A stretch of DNA of 42,213 bases from an uncultured bacterium (GCA_963700155.1 OY969472.1:132058-174270), one strand, 5' to 3'; counted from the first letter of the stretch, positions 15 through 24,909 are shown. Made by a program: numbers and translations. Notes: generated from the sequence alone by a model not told the origin.

Positions 15-893
15 GTGATTCCATCTTTATTAATTACTTTAACAAATGGTGCTGCACAAAATAATTATTTGAATACAAATAATTACATGATGGGATATAA
101 CATGGGGTACAACTATAGTTATAATGCTTATAACACAAGTAATAGCGTGTTTTCATTACTATTCCTATGTATTTTCTGCTTCAGTTTTATACCATACATT
201 GTAGTAAATCTATGGTACATGTATGAAAACACGCAAGCAGGAATTCAAAATCGGGAAACTAAACCCATTTGGAAAAATAATTTAACAGATACTTTAAAAA
301 AATCAGGGAAATACTTTTTAGTTAGTCTTTTTTATGGGTTTATTGCTCTAATAGTAATTCTTTTGCTTTTAGGGATATTCTGTGTTGGGATGGTTGCACT
401 TACTGCAGTTGGATATTCAAGTCTTCAAGCATCAAGCTTACAAAATAATATTGCATTCTTTTTAACTTCAGGAGTAGGAATAGCGCTTTTATGTTCATTA
501 CTTTTTGTAGGAATAGCTTTGTATGTAATATTCTATTTAGCTTTTACTCCAGCAGTACTACGATTGATTGGAAGCAATACATTTGCTGAAGGTTTAAAAG
601 TCCGCGAATCATGGAGAATTGGTTGGAAATATAAATGGAGATTCATTTATCTATTATGTCTTATGTTTATATTTGCATTTATTTTTGGAATATTTAGTGC
701 ATTAGGTGGAGTTGTAACAGATTTTTTAGGTCAAGGTTCCACTTTATTAAATTTCATTTTCCAGACTCTTTATCAAATTGTTGTAGCAGCAATAACTACG
801 TACTTTGCTTATTTTGTTTATACAAGACTGATAGGTCAATTATTTAGAAATATTGTTCAGGATGAAGAAAGTCTTAAATTTATAAAACTTTAA
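15..893 (+). CDS. hypothetical multi-pass membrane protein with N/Y-rich N-terminal low-complexity segment
   Basis: Long ORF. The frame stays open back to the left window edge, so the true start may be upstream or at an internal ATG (MMGYN...). Several 20-25 aa hydrophobic helices. No catalytic motif recognised. Confidence 0.55.
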   Translation: MIPSLLITLTNGAAQNNYLNTNNYMMGYNMGYNYSYNAYNTSNSVFSLLFLCIFCFSFIPYIVVNLWYMYENTQAGIQNRETKPIWKNNLTDTLKKSGKYFLVSLFYGFIALIVILLLLGIFCVGMVALTAVGYSSLQASSLQNNIAFFLTSGVGIALLCSLLFVGIALYVIFYLAFTPAVLRLIGSNTFAEGLKVRESWRIGWKYKWRFIYLLCLMFIFAFIFGIFSALGGVVTDFLGQGSTLLNFIFQTLYQIVVAAITTYFAYFVYTRLIGQLFRNIVQDEESLKFIKL

Positions 894-1420
894 GATTCAC
901 CTAGAAAAGCAATTAGATCATTCATGTAGATTTTTAGCATATTAATTAGTTCTTCATTTTGAGAGCCATTTATTATATCCTCCGAAGTTGCTCTATTACC
1001 TTCTAAATCTGGCATTTGTTGTTTTAAACGTTTCGACTTACGAACTTTTTCAGAAATCTTTATAAAAGCTTTAATCCGTTTTACAGCCCTTTTAATAATT
1101 GATCTATATCCTGTTCTATCATTTAAATATATGGATGTAAAAGGTGGAGCGATCATTAAGTAATCACCTAAAGTTTTATATCCTGAAGCCCAGATAAAAT
1201 CTAGAATTTCTTCGGATTTACTACTCAGCTGGCATATAATAATTAACTCATCTTTAGTAAAAACTGTATCAATAATTTTATTACCTCTACTAGCAGATCT
1301 AATGATTTGACCTTCTTGTGAAATATATACCTTCCCTAATTGACTTACATATACACTTTCGCAATTATTTATATTATTTGTCATAATTATTTTGTAAAAA
1401 CTAATTTTAAATATTAGCAT
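890..1420 (-). CDS. hypothetical protein
   Basis: 176-aa ORF, soluble-looking, basic helix-rich C-terminal half. The likely real start is the internal Met (MTNNINN, about nt 1384). No motif recognised. Confidence 0.45.
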   Translation of the reverse strand: MLIFKISFYKIIMTNNINNCESVYVSQLGKVYISQEGQIIRSASRGNKIIDTVFTKDELIIICQLSSKSEEILDFIWASGYKTLGDYLMIAPPFTSIYLNDRTGYRSIIKRAVKRIKAFIKISEKVRKSKRLKQQMPDLEGNRATSEDIINGSQNEELINMLKIYMNDLIAFLGES

Positions 1421-1426
1421 AAGAGA

Positions 1427-1963
1427 ATGAATAAGAATTTGGGGATATTATCTTTTATAGTTGTAACAGTTGGTATTATCATTTGTTTCTTAGTTGATTC
1501 TTCGATTCTAGATAAACAAAATTATGTTTTCAGCGAATTTGGAGTAATGAAAAAAACTTCTTTGATTTTTAATCTCACTCTGATTATCGGAGGGTTTATC
1601 AATCTACTTTACTCTGAATATTTAAGGAAAAATCTAAAATTAAAAATTAGTAATTATATTTCAATTTTATTATATATTTCCTCTATTTCGCTTATTGGAG
1701 TTGGATTGATCCCTTTCAATTTAAATGGAGTAATTCATTATATTCTTGCAGGAGTTCTATTTTTTATTATGCCATTAGCTTACTTCTTTGTTGGAAGAAT
1801 TCTAAAGGATAAAACTATTCAAATATTATGTTTACTGAATATTATCTTAGTATTAATAAGTTTCAATTTTATAAAGCCAGATATTGTCTCAGAGGTAATA
1901 TTCGCACTATTTATACTAATTACATTAGTATTTCTTTGGATAAAAGCTTTAGAAACTAACTAG
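1427..1963 (+). CDS. hypothetical integral membrane protein (about 6 TM)
   Basis: 178-aa ORF made almost entirely of hydrophobic helices. Confidence 0.6.
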   Translation: MNKNLGILSFIVVTVGIIICFLVDSSILDKQNYVFSEFGVMKKTSLIFNLTLIIGGFINLLYSEYLRKNLKLKISNYISILLYISSISLIGVGLIPFNLNGVIHYILAGVLFFIMPLAYFFVGRILKDKTIQILCLLNIILVLISFNFIKPDIVSEVIFALFILITLVFLWIKALETN

Positions 1964-1975
1964 TAAATAATGTTA

Positions 1976-2275
1976 TTAAGCTTCTTTATTGTCAATTTGT
2001 TTTAATCGTATACTAAACTTACCTTCTTTATCAGCTTCAACAATTACCATTGTATTACCTGTAATTGCATAGTAAACAATTTCACCACCAGTTTTTCTAA
2101 ACGGCTTTAAAGATAGCATACCTCCCATAAGAGATAAAGATATGGGAGTATTATCACCATATTTAAACCTGATCTCAGCATCTAACCACTTCTCAGGTCC
2201 TTCTGGTATTGAAGCACTGGCTGCAGATTCTGCATACGCCCTTTCTTCAATTTCATCATAATAATTTGTACTCAT
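1976..2275 (-). CDS. hypothetical small protein
   Basis: 99-aa ORF with native AT-rich composition. No motif recognised. Confidence 0.45.
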   Translation of the reverse strand: MSTNYYDEIEERAYAESAASASIPEGPEKWLDAEIRFKYGDNTPISLSLMGGMLSLKPFRKTGGEIVYYAITGNTMVIVEADKEGKFSIRLKQIDNKEA

Positions 2276-2563: not shown

Positions 2564-2572
2564 TGGTATAAT
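2564..2572 (+). promoter_or_regulatory. extended -10 promoter (TGGTATAAT) of the sortase operon; implies a leaderless or near-leaderless mRNA
   Basis: TGnTATAAT ends 8 nt before the ATG at 2581. No Shine-Dalgarno sequence in between. Confidence 0.5.
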
Positions 2573-2580
2573 GGGTATAT

Positions 2581-3213
2581 ATGAAAAATGCGTTAAATAC
2601 TTTTGCAAACATAAATATTTATATAGGTATAGCTTTACTTGTTATACCTGTCATTTTCCTTTTATTTACAGGTGTTAATAATAACAGCTATACAACTGTA
2701 TCTGCAAATAATACAAATCAAGAAATACTTTCAGAAGAAGTTATTGATCCAAGCTATAAAGCCGATTCTACAAGGATTTCAACAACTGAACAAATACTTG
2801 TTCCAACAAAGAATGCTGTAACATATGGAAATAAAATCCAAGTTAAGTCTGTTGGGATAGATGCTTTAATTTATGAATGTGCAACTTCTGTTTGTGGTTT
2901 AACTAAAGGAGTTTGGAGACTTCCTGATTTTGGTACTCCGATAAATGATAATTCGCCAATTGTTTTAGCTGCCCACAGGTGGGGTCCAGATAATTTATCT
3001 ACAGCCGATAGGATAAAAAATCTTTTCTATAATGCTGACAAGATATTTGAAGGTGACATGATTGAATTAACTTGGAATAATAAGGTATATAAATACAAAG
3101 TTACATATAAAGAAGAAAACAGTTATATTACAAAAAATTCAGATTTAATACTGGTTACTTGTAAATATTACAATTCAGATATAAGAATTATTGTGTACGC
3201 AAAGAAAATTTAA
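2581..3213 (+). CDS. sortase family transpeptidase (membrane-anchored)
   Basis: N-terminal TM anchor (INIYIGIALLVIPVIFLLF). His context VLAAHRWG. Catalytic Cys in LILVTCKYY (TLxTC-like). Downstream Arg in IRIIVYAKK. Size about 210 aa. Confidence 0.8.
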   Translation: MKNALNTFANINIYIGIALLVIPVIFLLFTGVNNNSYTTVSANNTNQEILSEEVIDPSYKADSTRISTTEQILVPTKNAVTYGNKIQVKSVGIDALIYECATSVCGLTKGVWRLPDFGTPINDNSPIVLAAHRWGPDNLSTADRIKNLFYNADKIFEGDMIELTWNNKVYKYKVTYKEENSYITKNSDLILVTCKYYNSDIRIIVYAKKI

Positions 3214-3237
3214 TTAAAATATTATTTTAAATATAAA

Positions 3238-4263
3238 ATGAGTTTTTTAGGAAAAGCAAGAAATGTAGCTATAGGAGCAGCAGCTTTAGCAACTGTAGGC
3301 CTAAATTTTGATCGAAATCAAAGAGTCGAGAATATTAAAGATTTTGAAAAGAAAATTACAGATTTAAATTTGGATTTTTACAAATTTCAATCAGACAATT
3401 TTGATTCAAGAATGTATTTTTCAAGATCTGTATATACTGATATAGTTACTGCCTTAAGTTTTGCTGAAGGTGATAAATTACCCTACATTCAATTAAGTGG
3501 TGACGATGAGATACCGACCCATTCTCAGGAAGCATATTCCCAGTATCAGTACACGCATCCGTTTGGACCATCCTATCAACTTAACCAAGAACGAATTATT
3601 TCAACTTATAAACTCATTCTAGATCAACTAGATGGAACCAAAAATTTATTAAAGCACTTTGAACAAACTAACATTATACCAGAAGATGCTAATACTTGGG
3701 GTTGGATTGTAGATTCACTTGATTTTTCACTCAATTACTTAAGTCAAGCCAACACTTATCTAACAGATGCAATAAATGGGAATAGGCTCCTTACAAGAGA
3801 TGAGTTACTTAATTTAAAAGAAGCACTCTATGAAGTACACAGGGGGATGGAATCTTTTCATAATTTTTTCCAAGATGCAATAGATAAAGTAACAAATGAA
3901 AGAACAGGTCAAATCATATCAGCAATATCATTTGCAGTAACATTATTTCTGAGTGGTTATCTTATGAAATTTATTAGAAGAAATAAAGATGAGCCTGAAA
4001 TTGAAGGTGAAAAACCAAAGAGAGTTGATGCCAACTACCCTATTCCCTTATTAACTAATGAAGGCGAAGTTGTATATGTTAGGTTAATACATAAAACCGA
4101 TAATGAGCTTTATTTTCAGACACCAGATATGAAGGTTATTATTCAACCAATTGATGATGAAACTGAAGTAAAGAGGAAAATGATTCCTGATAGTGCTGAG
4201 TCAGATGAATTAGATTTAGGCTATTTTCATGAAGAGAGAGATCAAGCTAAATTTGAAGGCTAA
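3238..4263 (+). CDS. uncharacterised two-TM membrane protein, paralogue 1 of 3
   Basis: Shares with the next two ORFs an N-terminal GKARNVAIGAAALATVGL segment, GD(K/E)LP(Y/F)I, NxNRLLTRxEL, a second TM (ISAISFAVTLFLSGYLM) and a C-terminal EKPKR...PIPLLT.EGE.VYVR...PIDDE.EVKRK domain. Confidence 0.75.
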   Translation: MSFLGKARNVAIGAAALATVGLNFDRNQRVENIKDFEKKITDLNLDFYKFQSDNFDSRMYFSRSVYTDIVTALSFAEGDKLPYIQLSGDDEIPTHSQEAYSQYQYTHPFGPSYQLNQERIISTYKLILDQLDGTKNLLKHFEQTNIIPEDANTWGWIVDSLDFSLNYLSQANTYLTDAINGNRLLTRDELLNLKEALYEVHRGMESFHNFFQDAIDKVTNERTGQIISAISFAVTLFLSGYLMKFIRRNKDEPEIEGEKPKRVDANYPIPLLTNEGEVVYVRLIHKTDNELYFQTPDMKVIIQPIDDETEVKRKMIPDSAESDELDLGYFHEERDQAKFEG

Positions 4264-4279
4264 ATTTTAGATTTTAAAT

Positions 4280-4338
4280 AAACTTATGAAAAATATATTA
4301 GGAAAAGCAAGAAATGTAGCTATTGCAGCCGGTGCTGC
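4280..4338 (+). repeat. conserved 59-nt 5' block (copy A) shared by paralogues 2 and 3
   Basis: 4280-4338 versus 5335-5393 differ at only 2 positions (4308 c/t, 4322 a/g). The rest of the two genes is strongly diverged. 26 nt (4298-4323) are also identical to 3247-3272 in paralogue 1. Confidence 0.85.
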
Positions 4339-5317
4339 AGCTACAGTTGGATTGGGATATAAATATATGAAAGATACAAACTCTTTATTAGAAACTGAAA
4401 ATTCAATTCATGTATTTGAATCAGATTTATACAAAGACACAAATCTAAAGCAATATATATTTACTGCAGCAGAACAAGATATAGATTTTAGTGAAATCAC
4501 AACTAATGACATTGCACTCCAATATGCCCAAGGGGATGAACTTCCTTTCATAGAAGCAACTAATCAATCAATAGCGTACCAACTTACTGAGAAACAGATA
4601 ATTAACACTTATCCTTACATTCTGATTAGATTTGAGAGTTTCTTTAAAAACTTTGCAGATATTTTCATGAGAATGGGCTTTGAAATGAACAATACTGAAG
4701 CACATGATTTCGTAGTTCCTAATGATTCTAGGGAATTAGGTAATCTAATAGCGAATGGTGTTAATCAAGTCTCACCAGTATATTATACAACCATAAAAAG
4801 AATAATCAATAATGCAATAAATGAAAATAGATTATTAACAAGAACTGAGCTTGATTTAATTAATAAAGAGCTTGCTGTAATACATCATTTTACTCAGTAT
4901 GTTATTAATACTCTAAATCAAATATTAATAAATACTCAAGACGAAGATTCTACTGCTATTATAATTGCAGCTATAACATCATTAACCTTGCTTCTTACAA
5001 AATTTTTTATCAAATCAAGTAATAATAATGAAGAAACAGGGGGAAATGAAGATACTGAAGACGAGAAACCAAAAAGAGATGATGTTAAATTTCCTATTCC
5101 TTTGCTAACTACTGAGTCTGAAATAGTTTATGTCCGAGAATTAACTAGAGATGACAAAGCTATTTATTATCAAGGATCGGATTTAAAAATTCATATAGTA
5201 CCCATTGATGATGAAGTTGAAATTAAAAGAAAATTAACTGAAGAAGATGATCTCCCATATGACCAAAATTATGATTATTATACTGATAATTCTATACAGG
5301 CTAATTTAGAAGCTTAA
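4286..5317 (+). CDS. uncharacterised two-TM membrane protein, paralogue 2 of 3
   Basis: Same architecture and motifs as 3238-4263. Confidence 0.75.
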   Translation: MKNILGKARNVAIAAGAAATVGLGYKYMKDTNSLLETENSIHVFESDLYKDTNLKQYIFTAAEQDIDFSEITTNDIALQYAQGDELPFIEATNQSIAYQLTEKQIINTYPYILIRFESFFKNFADIFMRMGFEMNNTEAHDFVVPNDSRELGNLIANGVNQVSPVYYTTIKRIINNAINENRLLTRTELDLINKELAVIHHFTQYVINTLNQILINTQDEDSTAIIIAAITSLTLLLTKFFIKSSNNNEETGGNEDTEDEKPKRDDVKFPIPLLTTESEIVYVRELTRDDKAIYYQGSDLKIHIVPIDDEVEIKRKLTEEDDLPYDQNYDYYTDNSIQANLEA

Positions 5318-5334
5318 TTTAAATTTTAAAATAT

Positions 5335-5393
5335 AAACTTATGAAAAATATATTAGGAAAAGTAAGAAATGTAGCTGTTGCAGCCGGTGCTGC
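5335..5393 (+). repeat. conserved 59-nt 5' block (copy B)
   Basis: See copy A. Confidence 0.85.
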
Positions 5394-6300
5394 TACCGCT
5401 ATTGGCATGGAAGTACAAAATTTACAAAAAGTATCAGATCTAGAAGATGTTAGAGACAGAATTGCCAATGTTGGACTAATGCAATTATTTCAAGATAGAA
5501 CTGATTACTTTGATGACCAGAACTTCTATGCAGTTGATATAGCTCTAAACTATTACAATGAAGGGGAATTGCCATATATAAATGATCATTATGGTCAAGT
5601 CGACCAGCAGTTCACTATAGAAGATATTATAAATGCCTATAAAATTATAGATACGAGAATAGTTGATATAACTAATACTTTAGTTAAAATTTTTAATCCA
5701 ATGGAATCAGAATGGTTAAAAATTTATTGGAACAATAATTTTTTATTCGGTAGAGAAGATTATAGAGGTACACCAATAGGTATTCGTGAAATCACTTATC
5801 AATTTCAAACTATTAGAGAAAGTTTGCAGAAAGCAATTTCAGAAGATAGATTGTTAAGTGAATCAGAGTTAAGAACTATAAGAAATCAATTAGCCAAACA
5901 AAATATACTATTCGCTAGAGCTGTAGAGAATTTAGATAAGTATATAAAGGAAAATCCAGCTCACCAAGATGTAGATATATTAAAATTTGCACTTGCTTCA
6001 CTGACATTACTATTATCAAAGTATGCATTTCTTTTAAGAAAAAAAGTAAACGAAAAACTGAAGAACCGACAGATAAAAGGTATAAAGACGAAAGTACTTA
6101 ATACTGAAGGCGAAATGGTCGATGCTCATTTAATAAAAATTGAAGGAGATAATTTTTACTTTATGACTGATGATGGAGATTTAGTTATTGAGAAAAGAAA
6201 AATGCAAATGGCTCAATTAGCTGAAGAAGAAATTCCTGCTGAGAATATGGAAGAAAGTCCAATAATTAATGAGATGGAACAAGGGACATTAGAATCTTAA
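5341..6300 (+). CDS. uncharacterised two-TM membrane protein, paralogue 3 of 3 (most divergent)
   Basis: Same N-terminal segment, EDRLLSESEL motif and second TM (ILKFALASLTLLLSKYAFLL). The C-terminal domain is divergent (VLNTEGEMVDAHLIKIEGDNFYF). Confidence 0.7.
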   Translation: MKNILGKVRNVAVAAGAATAIGMEVQNLQKVSDLEDVRDRIANVGLMQLFQDRTDYFDDQNFYAVDIALNYYNEGELPYINDHYGQVDQQFTIEDIINAYKIIDTRIVDITNTLVKIFNPMESEWLKIYWNNNFLFGREDYRGTPIGIREITYQFQTIRESLQKAISEDRLLSESELRTIRNQLAKQNILFARAVENLDKYIKENPAHQDVDILKFALASLTLLLSKYAFLLRKKVNEKLKNRQIKGIKTKVLNTEGEMVDAHLIKIEGDNFYFMTDDGDLVIEKRKMQMAQLAEEEIPAENMEESPIINEMEQGTLES

Positions 6301-6326
6301 TATACCTTGATAGTATACGAGATTAA

Positions 6327-6335
6327 TGATATAAT
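6327..6335 (+). promoter_or_regulatory. extended -10 promoter (TGATATAAT) for the 82-aa ORF
   Basis: Perfect TGnTATAAT 28 nt upstream of the ATG at 6364. Confidence 0.5.
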
Positions 6336-6363
6336 AGTAATATATTAATTTAATATTATAAAA

Positions 6364-6612
6364 ATGTTAAAGAAATTAATAAAACAAACTATCGGATACT
6401 CCTTACTTTTTGGAGTAGTTTCTTTAGTTAGTCCAGTTGCAGTAGCAGCTAGTGACGCAACAAAAATAAACCTTTATGGAATTAATACTGGTATTATTCC
6501 AACAGAAGCAGCAATTACAGATGTTGAAGTTGTAGCAATTGTTGCAAGTATAGTAGTTGGAGGTATATTAATTGCAAACGGTAAATTATTAAAAAGAGTT
6601 TTAAAGAAATAA
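6364..6612 (+). CDS. small exported protein with a sorting-signal-like C-terminus (IPTEA motif + TM + basic tail); candidate sortase substrate
   Basis: Signal peptide MLKKLIKQTIGYSLLFGVVSLVSPVAVAA|SD. Then GIIPTEAA, a hydrophobic stretch VEVVAIVASIVVGGILIA and the basic tail KLLKRVLKK. Has its own promoter and a strong terminator. Confidence 0.6.
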   Translation: MLKKLIKQTIGYSLLFGVVSLVSPVAVAASDATKINLYGINTGIIPTEAAITDVEVVAIVASIVVGGILIANGKLLKRVLKK

Positions 6613-6630
6613 TTAATAGTATAGATTTTG

Positions 6631-6676
6631 AAAGGCGGGTGATTTATTATAAATAAATCACCCGCCTTTATTATTT
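6631..6676 (+). terminator. rho-independent terminator
   Basis: 17-bp perfect stem AAAGGCGGGTGATTTAT / ATAAATCACCCGCCTTT (6631-6647 / 6653-6669) followed by a T-rich tail. Confidence 0.8.
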
Positions 6677-6713: not shown

Positions 6714-7916
6714 ATGAAACAAAAAGCTGTAACTTTTATCCCAGGAATTTCTCGAGTAATCTCCAATATTACCCCTATATTGATTCTTTTCGTCTTTACA
6801 AAATTTGAAGATGCAACAGAAATTGGAGCTTTAAATTACTTTATATCATTAATAGTATTAATCGGAATATTTACAGATTTTGGACTTACTGAATCAATAC
6901 AAAGGTTTCTTTCACACTATGATTCGAAAAAATTAATATTCCCAACTATTGCCCTTGAGTTTATTTTAACGATAGTCGGAGGGTTAATATTTGTTGCAGC
7001 AGACTTGATTTCAAAAGGACAGTTAAGCTACAACCACACTTTAGTCTTGTTCTTTATATTAATATTTTCTGCAAGTAATGTAATAATTCTGGTATTTAAT
7101 GGGCTGCAGGATAACTTAAGAACAAGTCAGTATTTTCTTGGTGCCGCAATATTATTTATATTGACAACCTTTATTCTCTATTTTACCGGAACAAATGCAG
7201 TAGATTCATTTTTATATGGGAGGTTAGTATCATGGATAGTATTCACTTTTCTCCCAATTCTTGATCTTTATAAAAAACAATTTTTTGAGTTTAGTATAAA
7301 ACTTCCTAAAAGATTTGTGACATTTGCTGTGAACAACTTTATGATTATTTTTTCATATAGTGTTTATAATCAATGGGATTCAATATTAATAACAAAAACA
7401 CTTGGTGAATATCAAAATGGTATCTATAAGCCTATAGCACTTTTGGCTAGTGCTCCATATGTCATAAGTGTAGCATTGAATACTAAACTCCTACCTGAAT
7501 ATAGTAAGTTACATAAAGAGGATAAAATAAAAGAGATCAGAAAAAGTTTTCTATATTTTACAAAACTTCTATTTGCAGGAAGTACTATTTTAGTTTTAAT
7601 TAGTATTCCATTAGCGAAGTTAGGACTATCAATAGTTTATAACAATGAAATAGCAGAAAATGGATATTTTTATTTTAGTCCAATTCTATTGGCTATATTG
7701 ATTTACGTATGTGCTATCCCAGCAGTTTCAATGCTTCAAGCCATCGGAAGAGAACATGTAATTAGGAACGCAGCTTTGATTCAAAGTATTGGATTTGTTG
7801 TCCTTTCTACTCTACTGTTACCTCAATTCGGGTTGATAATATTACCTTTAATTTTAATCGGAATAAATATAATCTTCTTTGCAGTAAATTTTGTTAATGC
7901 ATTTAAGGTTAAATAA
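6714..7916 (+). CDS. polysaccharide/oligosaccharide flippase (MOP/Wzx-like) membrane protein
   Basis: 400 aa with about 12 predicted TM helices. Sits next to glycosyltransferase genes. Call is based on topology and context, not on a strict motif. Confidence 0.55.
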   Translation: MKQKAVTFIPGISRVISNITPILILFVFTKFEDATEIGALNYFISLIVLIGIFTDFGLTESIQRFLSHYDSKKLIFPTIALEFILTIVGGLIFVAADLISKGQLSYNHTLVLFFILIFSASNVIILVFNGLQDNLRTSQYFLGAAILFILTTFILYFTGTNAVDSFLYGRLVSWIVFTFLPILDLYKKQFFEFSIKLPKRFVTFAVNNFMIIFSYSVYNQWDSILITKTLGEYQNGIYKPIALLASAPYVISVALNTKLLPEYSKLHKEDKIKEIRKSFLYFTKLLFAGSTILVLISIPLAKLGLSIVYNNEIAENGYFYFSPILLAILIYVCAIPAVSMLQAIGREHVIRNAALIQSIGFVVLSTLLLPQFGLIILPLILIGINIIFFAVNFVNAFKVK

Positions 7917-11918: not shown

Positions 11919-11963
11919 ATTTAAAATACTCAACCTACTAATAACAATTATTTATTATCACTA

Positions 11964-12006
11964 GGTCGAGCCGGAGAGGCTCTTTCGAGACACTCTCCGG
12001 TCGACC
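11964..12006 (-). terminator. long GC-rich hairpin immediately 3' of the island-1 gene
   Basis: GGTCGAGCCGGAGAG ... CTCTCCGGTCGACC (one bulge). Begins 10 nt after the stop codon. No U-tract. Confidence 0.5.
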
Positions 12007-12015
12007 CTGCTCATG

Positions 12016-12588
12016 TTACGGAGCCCATACCGGCAGCAAGCTGCCGACTTCGAGGACCACATTGTGGTAATTCGAATCGGGCACGAAAAGATCCGCCCAG
12101 GCACCCTCGCCGGTCCGCGCGTTGTACCGCGACATGATAGCAACCTTGTCCCAGCTCATGTACTGAAGCTGGGAAGCAAAGCATCCAAGACTCGGTAGTG
12201 AACCATCGTCCGATTGGAGAACCCAGATGGAACCAGGCGGGAACGCCGGCATTGCCATCGTGCTCGGCGGCAGGATGGTAATGACTTCACGCCAAGGAAT
12301 TTCTGCGCCATTGATGATCACTGCCGCGCTCGGATTCGCCTGGTAAAAGGCCAAACCGTGAGGCAGCGCCATGCCGCGCTCATTGACGACGCCGTTGAAA
12401 GCTTCCGCAAACCGGCAACCCGTAGAATCGCTAAAGTAGGACATCCACAAGGGGATATCCTCTTCCAGCAAGGGCGTGTTCGGATCGGGAACATCTGTCG
12501 CCGCCTCGTCCTGCGCGAGGACGGTGTGACCAACCACGAACAAGAAAACGACAACCAGTAGCAAAGCAAAAAATCCAAACTTCTTCAT
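12016..12588 (-). CDS. secreted hypothetical protein encoded on GC-rich island 1
   Basis: Signal peptide MKKFGFFALLLVVVFLFVVGHTVLA|QDE. Canonical SD AGGAGG (12596-12601) 7 nt from the ATG. Line 12061-12120 has 37/60 G+C. Several same-region and antisense ORFs are GC artefacts. Confidence 0.7.
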   Translation of the reverse strand: MKKFGFFALLLVVVFLFVVGHTVLAQDEAATDVPDPNTPLLEEDIPLWMSYFSDSTGCRFAEAFNGVVNERGMALPHGLAFYQANPSAAVIINGAEIPWREVITILPPSTMAMPAFPPGSIWVLQSDDGSLPSLGCFASQLQYMSWDKVAIMSRYNARTGEGAWADLFVPDSNYHNVVLEVGSLLPVWAP

Positions 12589-12762
12589 GACCTATCCTCC
12601 TCTCGTTTCCGAGATATAAGCCCCTGGTCTTGGGGTTGCGGCCAGAGGCCGCATTTTCGTTTTAAAAGTCGCTTTGCGTTTTCGCCAGGGTAGCAACCTT
12701 TCATCCCTCTGCTGTCCAACCGAAATGGTCAGATTCCCCAGCAGCGCACAAAACAGAAACGA

Positions 12763-18062: not shown

Positions 18063-21000
18063 TTAGAAAGTGTCTTGCCAATGAGAAGCTAAGATACTCA
18101 GATCAGATAAATCAACAACTCCATCGTAATTTGCATCTGCAGTACTTTTATGTTGATTCCAATATGTTGCAAGAATACTAAAATCAGATAGATCAACTTT
18201 TCTATCACTATTAAAATCACCAAAAGGTTTAAATGTTACTGTAAATGTAGAAACATTCAGTGCATTGCTGACAAAAGAATTACTGTCAGTTAGAGTAATA
18301 GTGCAGTTAGAATATGTACCAAGATTTAATTCATGAAATGTAATAGTTTTGTTACCTGCTCCACTTACACTAGTGGTTGAACTACTGCATGAACCGCCGT
18401 AAGTTAAAGTTCCAGCCTTGCTTGCACTGAAAGTATAATTTGGAGTTGTATCTGTTGTAATTGATGGTACTGCAGTAACTTGAGTTAATGTTGGAGCTGT
18501 AATTATTGTAAACGGTGTTACATTAAGTGAATTACTTTCGTTCATAGTTACATCAACTACAACAATTTTGCAATTAGAATGAGTGCTAACAGATAAAGTA
18601 TTAAATGTTATTGTGTTATTTCCTGTAGATGCTGAAGTTGTGTTACTTGAACAGTCACCATCGTAAACTATTAATCCTCCGAGAGTCGTGTTGAATGTGT
18701 AATTAGGAGTTGTATCGATTGTTGGAGTAGTAACTGGTGTTACCTCGGTTAAAAAAGGTGGGTCAGTAATTGTAAAAGGCGAAATATCCAAAATATTGCT
18801 CACATGCGAGCTACTGTCTGTCAAAGTTATTGTACAATTTGAATAAGTACCGTTAGATAATTCATCAAAAGTTATTGTGTTATTTCCAGCTACTGCTGAA
18901 GAGGTAGAGCTCGAACAAGTTCCACCATATGCGATAGTCCCTGCTGAGGTCGTACTAAAGGTGTAACTAGGTGTTGTGTCAGATCCTGGTGTTGGGACTG
19001 GTGTTACTTCTGTCAATATTGGATTTGGTGGACCAAAAGGCTGTAAATAAATCATAACTCTCCCTCTGTTCAAATCGGTTACATATAAATTATTGTCACT
19101 ATCAAATGTAGCTCCTAATGCCATTGAGTAATAATCAGATAAAAAAGTGTCTGGTGTGGGATTAGAAGCTAAAGGATCATAATATACAGCAGGGAACCTG
19201 CCAAATCCTGCAGGAGACCCACCTGGAACATAATATGCATTATATCCAACAACCATTCTATTATAAGCATCAAAGGCAGGTTCCCACGTTGCTACACTAT
19301 CAATAATTTTTGAAGGAGCTGTTGCATAAATAATTGAAGAATTATTAGTTGGAAATGTTCCAGCATTATATTCCAATAGTCGAAAATTACCCTGTATCTC
19401 TAAAGAGTGATCTGAAAGATAAAAATTTCCATAGTTATCTAAAGACAATGATCCAGGATAACAAAGTGTTGTAGTCCCTTTACTTCCACCTCGATTACAA
19501 CTTGTTCCCGTAGAATTTATTTGTCCTAAAATTACATCAATTGTTGGACTTGCCCCCAGAGGATCTCGTATTCTAAATACTCTGCTTTCTGAAGCTACTG
19601 ATACCCACATATAACTTGCATCTGGTGCCGGAACCAACCCGGAGAATGAATGGAAAGCATCGGTATAACTTATCTGTCCTCCTCCTAAAAGATTAATTGG
19701 TAAGTAAATTTGATGAGAAGGTAAATCTCCACTATTAAGAGGAAGATCATAAACATCAATGTGATATAAATCATCTCCGGCTGTATTTACAAGTGTGTAT
19801 AAATGATTAGAATTATCTTTTTTTAAACCAAAACAACATTGTGGTTCGAGGGTATTGAAATCTGGTGCACCTACATATCCATCAGCTGGTTTTCCATCAC
19901 TAAGATCGCTTACACCATCTGGAGTATTCCAAAAGAGTATCCTTCCTGAATCTGCAGAAATAACTTGATTATCTGTTACTACAACACCAGACACAGAAGC
20001 CATACTATTTTCATCTACATAATTTCCATAACTTGTAGGAGTATATAATCTATGAGAATACGTTGTATTATCATCTCCTTTATTAAAAATTAATACATCA
20101 TTATTTGATACTCCTGTCCCTGTTGCTGCATAAAGATTACCATTTGAATCTACGCCAATTGAACCACTAACATCACCTAATAAATTCCCATCATTATAAT
20201 CTCCAACACGTCTAATTAATGTACCTGATCCACTAGTATCCCAAAGTTCAATTACCGAATGTCCTTGATTTGTAATCCAAATCCTTCCTGGCTCAGTATC
20301 ATCAAAATCAAGTCCCGAAGGGAAAAGGAATCCACTACCAAAAACTATTCCAGAAGCTCCATTTGTAGACGGGTTTGAATATTTCATAACTCTGTAATTG
20401 TCAACAAAATGTTCAGCTACAAACACATCTCCACTTGTTGTTACTCTTACAGTATTTGGGTCATGCATCTTATTTAAGCCGGTTCCGGAAGTTTTAGTTG
20501 TAAATCCTGTTTGGCCAAGAACTAATGAAGCCGTTTTACTTTTAGTACATGAACTTCCGGAACCGGAAGAACACGGAAATTTTAAAACTCTATTATTTGC
20601 ACTATCCACAATCCAAAGATTCCCATTTGAATCTACATCTACACCAGCAGTCCAATTATTAGATTCTCCCCAGCTAAAACACAAACTTGAATTGCTTGGA
20701 GTTGCTAAACCTTTATTACATAAAGATGTTGTAAAGTTCATTCCTCCTTGTGTTCCATCTCCTTGACCCCATACTTCGTCAGCTGTAGTATCAGTATTAA
20801 AAGGATCGTAATACTCTAAAACTCTATTATTAGCAAAATCTGCAACAAATAAATTATTTGATGAATCTACTGCCATACTTGCTCCTGAACCACCTTCAGA
20901 AACTGACAGAATTGATGCATCTTCACCACAGAGAGTTGAAGCTGATGCGGTAGGAAAAGTTGGATAATTTTGAAATCCAGAATCTCCATTACATCCTGAA

Positions 21001-21377
21001 GATGTAAAATCTGGTTGTCCTAAAACGATCGATGGTACACAATTCAATGGGTCAGTATTTGAAGACAAACAATCTTCAAGGTCATAACCTAAAATTCTAT
21101 TATTTCCAGCATCATATATATACATTTTATTATCACTCGGATTATTTCGATTAATAAAAACACCATGAGGCAAAGCTAATGCGGTTGAAGTTGTAGAATA
21201 AGCTGAGATTGTATTAAAATCAGGCTTGCCGATAACCAAATCAGCAATTGTATCATCAGTTTCTCCCCGAATTAAAGATGCATGAACAGTAGTTATATAG
21301 CTAAGCTGAGAAAAACTACTCAAAGTAAGTACCATAATTAATAGACCCACAAATAAGATGGTAAGTTTTTTTGCCAT
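18063..21377 (-). CDS. large secreted NHL-repeat (beta-propeller) protein with three Ig-like tandem repeats and a C-terminal dockerin-like module
   Basis: Signal peptide MAKKLTILFVGLLIMVLTLSSF. Repeated ..NNR(I/V)L(E/K)(Y/F).. NHL-type blades. Three modules of about 87 aa beginning LT(E/Q)VT. C-terminal DFNSDRKVDLSDFSILA...DANYDGVVDLSDLSILA (duplicated Ca-binding dockerin-type segment). Confidence 0.75.
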   Translation of the reverse strand: MAKKLTILFVGLLIMVLTLSSFSQLSYITTVHASLIRGETDDTIADLVIGKPDFNTISAYSTTSTALALPHGVFINRNNPSDNKMYIYDAGNNRILGYDLEDCLSSNTDPLNCVPSIVLGQPDFTSSGCNGDSGFQNYPTFPTASASTLCGEDASILSVSEGGSGASMAVDSSNNLFVADFANNRVLEYYDPFNTDTTADEVWGQGDGTQGGMNFTTSLCNKGLATPSNSSLCFSWGESNNWTAGVDVDSNGNLWIVDSANNRVLKFPCSSGSGSSCTKSKTASLVLGQTGFTTKTSGTGLNKMHDPNTVRVTTSGDVFVAEHFVDNYRVMKYSNPSTNGASGIVFGSGFLFPSGLDFDDTEPGRIWITNQGHSVIELWDTSGSGTLIRRVGDYNDGNLLGDVSGSIGVDSNGNLYAATGTGVSNNDVLIFNKGDDNTTYSHRLYTPTSYGNYVDENSMASVSGVVVTDNQVISADSGRILFWNTPDGVSDLSDGKPADGYVGAPDFNTLEPQCCFGLKKDNSNHLYTLVNTAGDDLYHIDVYDLPLNSGDLPSHQIYLPINLLGGGQISYTDAFHSFSGLVPAPDASYMWVSVASESRVFRIRDPLGASPTIDVILGQINSTGTSCNRGGSKGTTTLCYPGSLSLDNYGNFYLSDHSLEIQGNFRLLEYNAGTFPTNNSSIIYATAPSKIIDSVATWEPAFDAYNRMVVGYNAYYVPGGSPAGFGRFPAVYYDPLASNPTPDTFLSDYYSMALGATFDSDNNLYVTDLNRGRVMIYLQPFGPPNPILTEVTPVPTPGSDTTPSYTFSTTSAGTIAYGGTCSSSTSSAVAGNNTITFDELSNGTYSNCTITLTDSSSHVSNILDISPFTITDPPFLTEVTPVTTPTIDTTPNYTFNTTLGGLIVYDGDCSSNTTSASTGNNTITFNTLSVSTHSNCKIVVVDVTMNESNSLNVTPFTIITAPTLTQVTAVPSITTDTTPNYTFSASKAGTLTYGGSCSSSTTSVSGAGNKTITFHELNLGTYSNCTITLTDSNSFVSNALNVSTFTVTFKPFGDFNSDRKVDLSDFSILATYWNQHKSTADANYDGVVDLSDLSILASHWQDTF
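18225..19016 (-). repeat. three tandem coding repeats of about 260 bp (Ig-like modules) inside the 1104-aa gene
   Basis: Protein modules LTEVTPVPTPGSDTTPSYTF..., LTEVTPVTTPTIDTTPNYTF... and LTQVTAVPSITTDTTPNYTF.... Boundaries read at about 19016, 18752 and 18488. Confidence 0.8.
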
Positions 21378-23889: not shown

Positions 23890-24909
23890 TTAATTTTTTA
23901 TATTTTCTTCATTTTTATTATTTACTTCGTCTTTACTTAAATTTTGAATTTTCTCCTTTTTATTTGAAGAATTACGTTTAACCAAAAGGAATACTATTGT
24001 TAGTAACAGTACTAGCAATAAACAGCAGCAAAGTAAAACTAAACATGGTAAAAATGAGTACCCAAAAGATCCAATAAGTGGTGAAAAAATTGGCATAGTT
24101 GATAAATCACTCTCTGGATTATCTAAAAGTTGTTGAAGATCATCTGGAATATTATCTACAGGACTTGTGTCACTTGACTGAGGATTATCTGTGGTTGGTG
24201 TTGAATTGTCTGATGGATTATTCTGATTATTAGGATTTGTTTCATTTGTATCATTTGTCGAAGGATTATCTTGAGTTGGCTGTTCAGATGACGGAACTGT
24301 ATAAATGACATCTAAAACTGGTTCTCTGTTAATATCACCATTTTCTCTAGAATAAAAAGTCTTTAGAAATGATTCACTAGAATCGTAAACCATATATAAT
24401 CCATAATTTGATTGTCCATCAATCCAATTCTGAGTAATACCGGTAACATCAAACCCATATATATCATAATCACATGTTACCACTGTTAATGCTGAATCAA
24501 TATCGGTTGAAGATGGAGCACTTTTCCAAGTTATTGTACTTTCACTCCAATCGTTAGTAACTTGTTTAACAGTAACAGAAATTGGATCCCCATCGCATTG
24601 TTTGGAAAATACTGATAACCATGAACTTGTAATTATTGCGTTCGAAGGGATTCCACTAATATCAAATCTCACAAAAGAATATCTATCAAATCCGTTAAGT
24701 GTTGAATGACCTACCTCAATTATATTGTAGGAGCCATAATTAGTATTTGGAGTTCCGGAGTATACTTCAGCATCTGCAACTGGATATAAAGATACAGTTT
24801 CATCAGCTTTAACTTTATTTGAAAACTGAATACTTACAAAACTAAATAAGATAAATACTATCAAGAAACAGAACAAATACGTAGGTATATTAAACCGTTT
24901 TTTGAACAT
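23890..24909 (-). CDS. cell-surface protein with DNRLRE/CBM96-like N-terminal beta-sandwich, P/T/N/S-rich linker and Cys-rich C-terminal TM anchor
   Basis: VSLYPVADAEVYSGTPNTNYGS...RYSFVRFDISGIPSNAIITSSWLSVF...NDWSESTITWKSAPS fits the DNRLRE-domain pattern. C-terminal LPCLVLLCCCLLLVLLLTIVFLLVKRN. Confidence 0.6.
   Translation of the reverse strand: MFKKRFNIPTYLFCFLIVFILFSFVSIQFSNKVKADETVSLYPVADAEVYSGTPNTNYGSYNIIEVGHSTLNGFDRYSFVRFDISGIPSNAIITSSWLSVFSKQCDGDPISVTVKQVTNDWSESTITWKSAPSSTDIDSALTVVTCDYDIYGFDVTGITQNWIDGQSNYGLYMVYDSSESFLKTFYSRENGDINREPVLDVIYTVPSSEQPTQDNPSTNDTNETNPNNQNNPSDNSTPTTDNPQSSDTSPVDNIPDDLQQLLDNPESDLSTMPIFSPLIGSFGYSFLPCLVLLCCCLLLVLLLTIVFLLVKRNSSNKKEKIQNLSKDEVNNKNEENIKN

Follow-up and report, generated by a model that had tools for sequence, protein, structure and literature searches.

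Sortase cassettes of Gram-positive bacteria combine a membrane-anchored cysteine transpeptidase with invariant His, Cys and Arg residues and an adjacent gene for a dedicated substrate, which carries a signal peptide, a pentapeptide ending in TG (LPXTG-type signals), a hydrophobic stretch and a basic tail. The same elements, the pentapeptide as a candidate, were found in a block of five plus-strand genes within a 42,213-nt stretch of DNA from an uncultured bacterium (GCA_963700155.1 OY969472.1:132058-174270; called the window here, and all coordinates are window positions unless another locus is named). The five open reading frames (ORFs), which lie where an initial annotation had placed them, encode a sortase, three paralogous proteins (P1, P2 and P3) and a mini sortase substrate. 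The block differs from the Gram-positive cassettes in its substrate, which has only 82 aa, in the pentapeptide GINTG, which has neither Leu nor Pro and is degenerate in the relatives, in the sortase, which stays under the Pfam and NCBIfam cut-offs and can be assigned to no class, and in the three unrelated genes that stand between enzyme and substrate. On balance we lean towards reading P1-P3 as membrane or envelope proteins restricted to this lineage, which share a transcript with the sortase without being its substrates and whose genes were inserted into a conserved cassette.

In seven related loci (L001, L036, L002, L005, L006, L008 and L019) the mini gene directly follows the sortase gene. 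L001 and L036, with sortases 57% and 54% identical to that of the window, show the order sortase, a spacer of 65-68 nt, a mini protein of 96-97 aa and then a Polysacc_synt flippase, which is 57% identical to the Wzx-type polysaccharide flippase of the window (6714-7916, + strand; Pfam PF01943, E 3.4e-13); a DUF4013 gene lies upstream in L001, as in the window. Here, the sortase gene (2581-3213) and the mini gene (6364-6612) are separated by P1 (3238-4263, 341 aa), P2 (4286-5317, 343 aa) and P3 (5341-6300, 319 aa), with gaps of 24, 22, 23 and 63 nt along the five genes; the sizes of the three proteins and the gaps of 22-24 nt around them had been given correctly in the initial annotation. The DNA at 6307-6345, just ahead of the mini gene, is a near base-for-base match to the sortase-mini spacers of L001 (8640-8700) and L036 (808-865), with TGATATAATAGTAATATAT common to them, and this spacer DNA is kept between genomes whose flanking proteins share no more than 45-57% identity. 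The spacer match together with the adjacency of sortase and mini gene in the relatives indicates that the trio occupies an insertion, and parsimony over the seven loci makes this insertion specific to the lineage of the window. The comparison shows a conserved unit of sortase and mini-substrate, which in the closest relatives also includes the Wzx-type flippase, and it shows the trio as an insertion of ~3.1 kb between the stop codon of the sortase and the promoter of the mini gene. A functional linkage of the three proteins to the sortase, which by the initial annotation's own account a lack of conserved synteny would refute, was not borne out, as no synteny of the trio with a sortase was found in the relatives; the link looks like an accident of insertion. 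The locus is a conserved Patescibacteria cell-surface cassette of a membrane-anchored sortase and its dedicated mini-substrate, which has its own conserved promoter and terminator, and into which, in this lineage only, an array of three anciently duplicated orphan genes has been set; the conserved sortase pathway would have no need of P1-P3. More distant Microgenomates loci carry larger nearby proteins that end in ICTPVYG..C..VDTG, a transmembrane (TM) segment and a basic tail.

That the first gene of the block encodes a membrane-anchored sortase, as predicted, holds. The protein (210 aa, putative catalytic His132, Cys194 and Arg202) has 13 relatives with 35-62% identity, and PF04203 is matched by 13 of the 14 family members (all relatives, not the window protein itself; best E 3.4e-18). 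H132 (AAHRWG), C194 (LVTC) and R202 are invariant across all 14 (alignment A2), and the N-terminal anchor is strong, with a Kyte-Doolittle hydropathy (KD19) of 2.69 at a usual TM cut-off of 1.6. A Pfam scan of the window sortase at E up to 1 gave no match, and NCBIfam sortase models match it at E 1e-6 to 3e-7, under their cut-offs (28.6 bits for TIGR01076, cut-off 39.35). None of the class-specific NCBIfam cut-offs (classes A-F) was reached; class C came out best with 30.5 bits versus a cut-off of 160, and classes D and E score under class C. A search with the profile of the sortase family retrieved 30 solved sortases, with a class C enzyme ranking first (E 3.3e-8), and the catalytic H/C/R of the window sortase coincide with the His, TC and Arg positions of a solved enzyme of class C. 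Sortases have been reported to be near-ubiquitous in Microgenomates (PMC6744442), and for this reason the presence of one here is ordinary; beyond this general near-ubiquity, nothing was found in the literature on this cassette. The relatives of the sortase derive from Patescibacteria metagenome-assembled genomes labelled Dojkabacteria, Collierbacteria, Woesebacteria and "Saccharibacteria", and the window itself has a GC content of ~30% and encodes a bacterial NusA, a class B penicillin-binding protein, MraY and an SBP_bac_5 protein. The source contig has a length of 1.14 Mb, and the source organism is a candidate phyla radiation (CPR)/Patescibacteria bacterium of a sparsely sampled lineage with a small, low-GC genome.

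The last gene had been described as encoding a mini sorting-signal protein of 82 aa, and signal peptide, TM helix, basic tail and the orthologues located after a sortase all agree with this description. A signal-peptide-like segment (residues 10-28, KD 1.96) and a C-terminal TM helix (residues 54-72, KD 2.31) were detected, the protein ending in NGKLLKRVLKK with KLLKRVLKK at the extreme C-terminus, and the pattern of signal peptide, hydrophobic stretch and basic tail is kept in 10 members of the mini family. This family is small and unnamed (8 proteins among 5.8 billion) and features an invariant YGI, a pentapeptide mostly ending in TG, a TM with a conserved Gly and a terminal NGK..K. The predicted pentapeptide motif of the window protein, GINTG, lies 12 residues ahead of the TM as part of a YGI-NTG motif; the corresponding pentapeptides are GIDTG in L001 and L036, IPPTG in L002, PPKTG in L008, CANTG in L019, IPDTS in L005, VPVLG in L006 and VPYLG in P0024 and P0025 (mini genes at L001 8702-8995, L036 866-1156, L002 5240-5548 and L019 6747-7025). 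In L001 and L036 a K-x-L-NLYGIDT unit of the mini protein is tandemly duplicated, and Cys pairs occur around YGIC in more distant members of the family. Cleavage by signal peptidase and sortase would leave a passenger of only ~13 residues (SDATKINLYGINT).

The best promoter match of the whole region (11/12, extended -10) is located between P3 and the mini gene at 6307-6335, and the complete putative promoter (6307-6345, + strand) consists of TTGATA, 17 nt, TG-TATAAT and the conserved AGTAATATAT, as found by the promoter scan and the DNA match to L001 and L036. An intrinsic terminator follows the gene at 6631-6669 (+ strand), with an 18-bp perfect stem, 7 GC pairs and a T-rich tail, as seen in both terminator and repeat scans. 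The codon-usage fit of the mini gene was the best of the 23 window genes tested, a value calculated on 82 codons only. Conservation of the promoter and codon fit suggest a high and tightly specified expression of the mini gene. As the mini gene has this conserved promoter of its own, the single operon of the initial annotation was an oversimplification; its proposal of a tight, co-oriented arrangement of sortase and trio stands. The sortase-mini cassette predicts the display or attachment of a very short peptide instead of a protein, which is testable with a synthetic peptide (e.g. KINLYGINTGIIPTE) and recombinant enzyme; if true, this would extend the known range of sortase functions, and a sortase dedicated to a peptide-sized passenger may deserve a separate study.

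The three middle genes were confirmed as paralogues of an undescribed family. P2 and P3 are 36% and 28% identical to P1 (28-36% among the paralogues) with 54 invariant columns over the whole length (alignment A1), and P2 matched P1 with E 7.5e-32 in the search of 5.8 billion sequences, while P3 matched P2 (E 1e-15) and P1 (E 2e-14) collinearly over the full length, so that the paralogy is far above chance. Three ORFs of 320-340 codons in a genome of 30% GC cannot arise by chance either; the genes are real, and no other ORF of at least 50 aa overlaps 3238-6300. The encoded proteins are acidic and Cys-free. Synonymous divergence between the copies is saturated (dS 1.2-1.8 or undefined), from which it follows that the duplications are ancient and that dN/dS cannot be interpreted; the calculation of dN/dS per domain, proposed earlier as a check, was uninformative for this reason. 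An exception to the saturation are the first 78 nt of P2 and P3 (repeat family D1), which are 87% identical in DNA with a dS of 0.29. The similar stretches (4278-4355 and 5333-5410) include 8 nt upstream of each gene, which suggests gene conversion, or else constraint, at these 5' ends. A foreign origin of the trio was considered and found no support, as GC (0.29-0.32), GC at third codon positions (0.16-0.20) and codon fit are inside the range of the neighbouring genes.

P1-P3 would most likely be transcribed by read-through from the sortase promoter, because the gaps are only 22-24 nt and the terminator scan showed no terminator-like site on the + strand within 3214-6630. An extended -10-like element (TGgTATAAT, 2564-2572, + strand), read directly from the sequence, lies 8 nt before the ATG of the sortase, and a leaderless or near-leaderless sortase transcript may start from it; the two-hexamer promoter scan did not report this element. 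None of the five genes is preceded by a visible Shine-Dalgarno sequence.

Relatives of P1-P3 were searched for at several levels. Word-indexed phmmer against 5.8 billion proteins and a profile hmmsearch against 1.84 billion cluster representatives returned only the three proteins themselves, and pattern and tblastn scans of GTDB species genomes, JGI metagenome contigs and IMG/VR revealed no P1-P3 loci. Pfam and NCBIfam scans at E up to 1 and a sequence profile search of the PDB at E up to 10 gave noise only, and PHROGs (best E 0.013) and PADLOC (best E 0.1) matched short stretches but no family. When hmmsearch --max was run against 2614 ORFs from 39 fetched related loci and the window, no relative was detected, the sole near-match among the ORFs of the fetched loci being noise between a TM and a signal peptide. 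P1-P3 thus appear to form an undescribed family with no member outside the source genome in any of these collections. Orphan membrane proteins are common in CPR genomes.

From sequence and low-confidence models, a common layout may be proposed for the three proteins: a short basic N-terminus, a weakly hydrophobic Ala/Gly helix, a mainly helical domain of ~200 aa, one moderately hydrophobic TM helix, a small SH3/Tudor-like beta-barrel and an acidic disordered tail. The N-termini share the motif M(K)xxLGKxRNVAxAAGAAxxxG. The AlphaFold models of P1 and P2 agree on the order of elements, with an N-terminal helix, a small mixed region, three long helices (~110-217), the TM helix (~220-247), four short strands (~270-305) and the disordered acidic tail. 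Of the two TM segments proposed in the initial annotation, the second is supported (KD19 1.62-2.21), although it is only marginal in P1 and P3 (1.62-1.68), whereas the first is under the cut-off. The motifs NxNRLLTRxEL and PIPLLT...PIDDE.EVKRK, thought to be conserved in all copies, are common to P1 and P2 only; P3, the most divergent of the copies, has DRLLSESEL and no PIP or PIDDE. In the low-confidence models NRLLT-x-x-E occupies the corner where the second long helix turns into the third, and there it would most simply be a structural motif, namely a hydrophobic staple with a capping box. Foldseek with the models, another check proposed earlier, gave nothing at E up to 0.001 against the PDB and BFVD. 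Local matches of high probability were confined to generic helical bundles and, for the tail, mini-barrels of the SH3/Tudor-like kind; all fold matches had E > 0.05 and are hints only. A Pfam match of Sigma70_r1_2 to residues 269-289 of P1 (4042-4104, E 0.02; PLLTNEGEVV resembling PLLTxEEE) was judged to be due to chance because it is under the cut-off, absent in P2 and P3 and within a predicted beta-strand.

The layout of a sorting signal, with pentapeptide, TM and short basic tail at the extreme C-terminus, was sought in P1-P3 and not found. The proteins are not expected to be substrates of the sortase, because 86-99 residues follow the second TM and no motif is kept ahead of it. A TG ahead of the TM occurs only in P1 (NERTG); as it is conserved in neither P2 nor P3, it was rejected as a sorting motif.

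The orientation of the proteins in the membrane is less clear. Next to the second helix, K/R residues are more numerous on the C side than on the N side in all three copies (5 vs 2, 2 vs 0 and 9 vs 2), which favours the claimed orientation of this helix with its C side in; around the first segment no clear bias was seen. A hairpin with the N-terminus inside, the helical domain outside and barrel and tail inside is the arrangement to which we would give the greatest weight, albeit a little short of even; a single-pass protein with a cytoplasmic helical domain seems rather unlikely, and the remaining probability falls to a peripheral or soluble protein. In the hairpin, the barrel and tail that the copies share would lie in the cytoplasm and bind one partner common to all, with the diverged helical domains exposed outside. 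Several observations speak against this hairpin or against the wider reading of P1-P3 as inserted, lineage-restricted envelope proteins. The uncharged stretch of the N-terminal Ala/Gly segment has only 14 residues with KD19 1.05-1.18, under the TM cut-off, and differs from the signal peptides found in the mini protein and in a 190-aa protein encoded at 12016-12588, which are rich in Leu/Phe/Val; with no export signal, a 200-aa N-terminal domain would be unable to cross the membrane. The TM of P3 carries lysines within its hydrophobic stretch, and the models of P1 and P2, calculated from a three-sequence alignment, have a mean pLDDT (predicted local distance difference test) of 45.1 and 42.5, which makes all statements on the fold weak. 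The lineage is poorly sampled, the best sortase relative being 62% identical and located on a contig of 793 bp, and P1-P3 orthologues may exist in unsampled close relatives. Finally, a real functional link gained in this lineage would also account for how tightly the trio and the sortase are packed.

The weak N-terminal segment, the marginal TM of P1 and P3 and the acidic, Cys-free, bundle-like helical domain would also suit a reverse or non-hairpin topology, in which the helical domain is a cytoplasmic, membrane-tethered scaffold and the TM puts the barrel outside, or in which the protein is only peripheral. As all three copies have K/R enriched on the C side of the TM as well as a basic n-region followed by the uncharged 14-residue stretch, which is typical of an export signal or signal anchor, we regard this topology as unlikely, though it is the least improbable of the alternatives.

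The initial annotation had seen P1-P3 as a sortase-linked module for surface variation or host contact. In such a module, variable ectodomains would touch a host or partner cell, and the sortase or the mini peptide it processes would work with the three proteins, e.g. as acceptor or scaffold. The tight, co-oriented packing with the sortase and no terminator between them, the K/R bias at the TM, which fits an outside helical domain, and a neighbourhood that otherwise serves the cell surface (flippase, glycosyltransferases, NHL/dockerin and CBM96 proteins) are consistent with such a module. So is the divergence of the helical domain in P1 and P2, whose identity is 30% for the middle but 49% for the tail. 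In pairs that involve P3, however, the values are 24-26% for the middle and 26-36% for the tail, so that the contrast vanishes and the supposed pattern of variable outside and conserved inside rests on a single pair. In addition, in every relative with context the mini gene adjoins the sortase and no trio lies between them, the family was found nowhere else in the searched databases, the N-terminal export signal is doubtful, and Pfam and Foldseek revealed no adhesin-like repeats or folds. The module is accordingly even less likely than the reverse topology.

The predicted order of elements also resembles the four-helix-bundle layout of chemoreceptors and sensor kinases, with generic helical bundles as the only global fold matches. 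P1-P3 differ from these proteins in that Pfam detects no HAMP, kinase, methyl-accepting or other output domain, and in their predicted cytoplasmic part, an SH3-like barrel of ~40 residues with a disordered acidic tail. In a more speculative reading, P1-P3 might be lineage-born hairpin receptors of an episymbiotic Patescibacteria cell, with diverging helical ectodomains that recognise host or phage surfaces or that accept or scaffold the ~13-residue peptide, and with shared barrel and acidic tail linking them to a single partner in the cytoplasm; their shared transcript with the sortase would in that case reflect a functional coupling of recent evolution and no accident. We give this idea less credence than the surface module, and a host- or phage-facing role of the diverged helical domain is at most possible.

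Membrane proteins of the Wzz type, i.e. polysaccharide co-polymerases (PCP), offer a further comparison. Their established layout of a hydrophobic segment, a helical domain of ~200 aa and a TM is similar to that of P1-P3, and the trio adjoins the Polysacc_synt flippase, a 688-aa polytopic membrane protein and a GT4 enzyme, so that P1-P3 could be chain-length regulators for a locus of Wzx flippase and glycosyltransferases. No match to Wzz/PCP (PF02706) or any other Pfam or NCBIfam model was obtained at E up to 1, however, and L001, L036 and L019 carry the same flippase but no such gene. The presence of three copies, the too weakly hydrophobic first segment, the extra barrel and acidic tail of ~90 aa, which PCP-1 proteins lack, and the missing proline-rich motif ahead of the second TM also argue against a Wzz-like analogue, which we consider very improbable.

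Lowest in our estimation is phage or mobile-element cargo, e.g. a superinfection-exclusion or defence protein inserted near tRNA-Gln (2431-2501, upstream of the sortase). The lineage-specific insertion lies in a variable region 740 nt downstream of this tRNA, and the neighbouring ORFs of 176 and 99 aa are also orphans. Nevertheless, composition and codon usage are native, the saturated synonymous sites reflect old residents, no integrase or transposase was found, the repeat scan detected no direct or inverted repeats flanking the trio, PHROGs, PADLOC and IMG/VR gave no matches, and the sortase stands between the tRNA and the trio.

P1-P3 cannot be tied to any mechanism. If the reading as inserted, lineage-restricted envelope proteins is true, the trio is a further example of envelope genes that arise and persist in single lineages of ultra-small bacteria despite their reduced genomes, here an old three-copy family that has no relative among ~15 billion predicted proteins and sits inside an otherwise conserved operon-like cassette. 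The locus makes no long-standing open question directly testable.

The segment between the DUF4013 gene and the sortase differs between genomes and is a second variable spot beside the cassette. In the window (890-2275) it holds the 176-aa orphan, a DUF998 membrane protein, the 99-aa orphan and tRNA-Gln, and in L001 (6296-7727) an ORF of 98 aa and an OGG glycosylase. Further downstream in the window, a GC island (11950-12750; 51-59% GC versus ~30% for the genome) looks like a recent horizontal acquisition. It holds the above-mentioned ORF of 190 aa (12016-12588, - strand), which encodes a classic signal peptide (MKKFGFFALLLVVVFLFVVGHTVLAQ) and for which neither Pfam nor Rfam gave a match. A protein of 1104 aa (18063-21377, - strand) combines NHL repeats with a C-terminal type I dockerin domain, which implies a cohesin partner somewhere, and a protein of 339 aa (23890-24909, - strand) carries a CBM96 domain; by their predicted domains, both are putative surface or carbohydrate-binding equipment in a small CPR genome.

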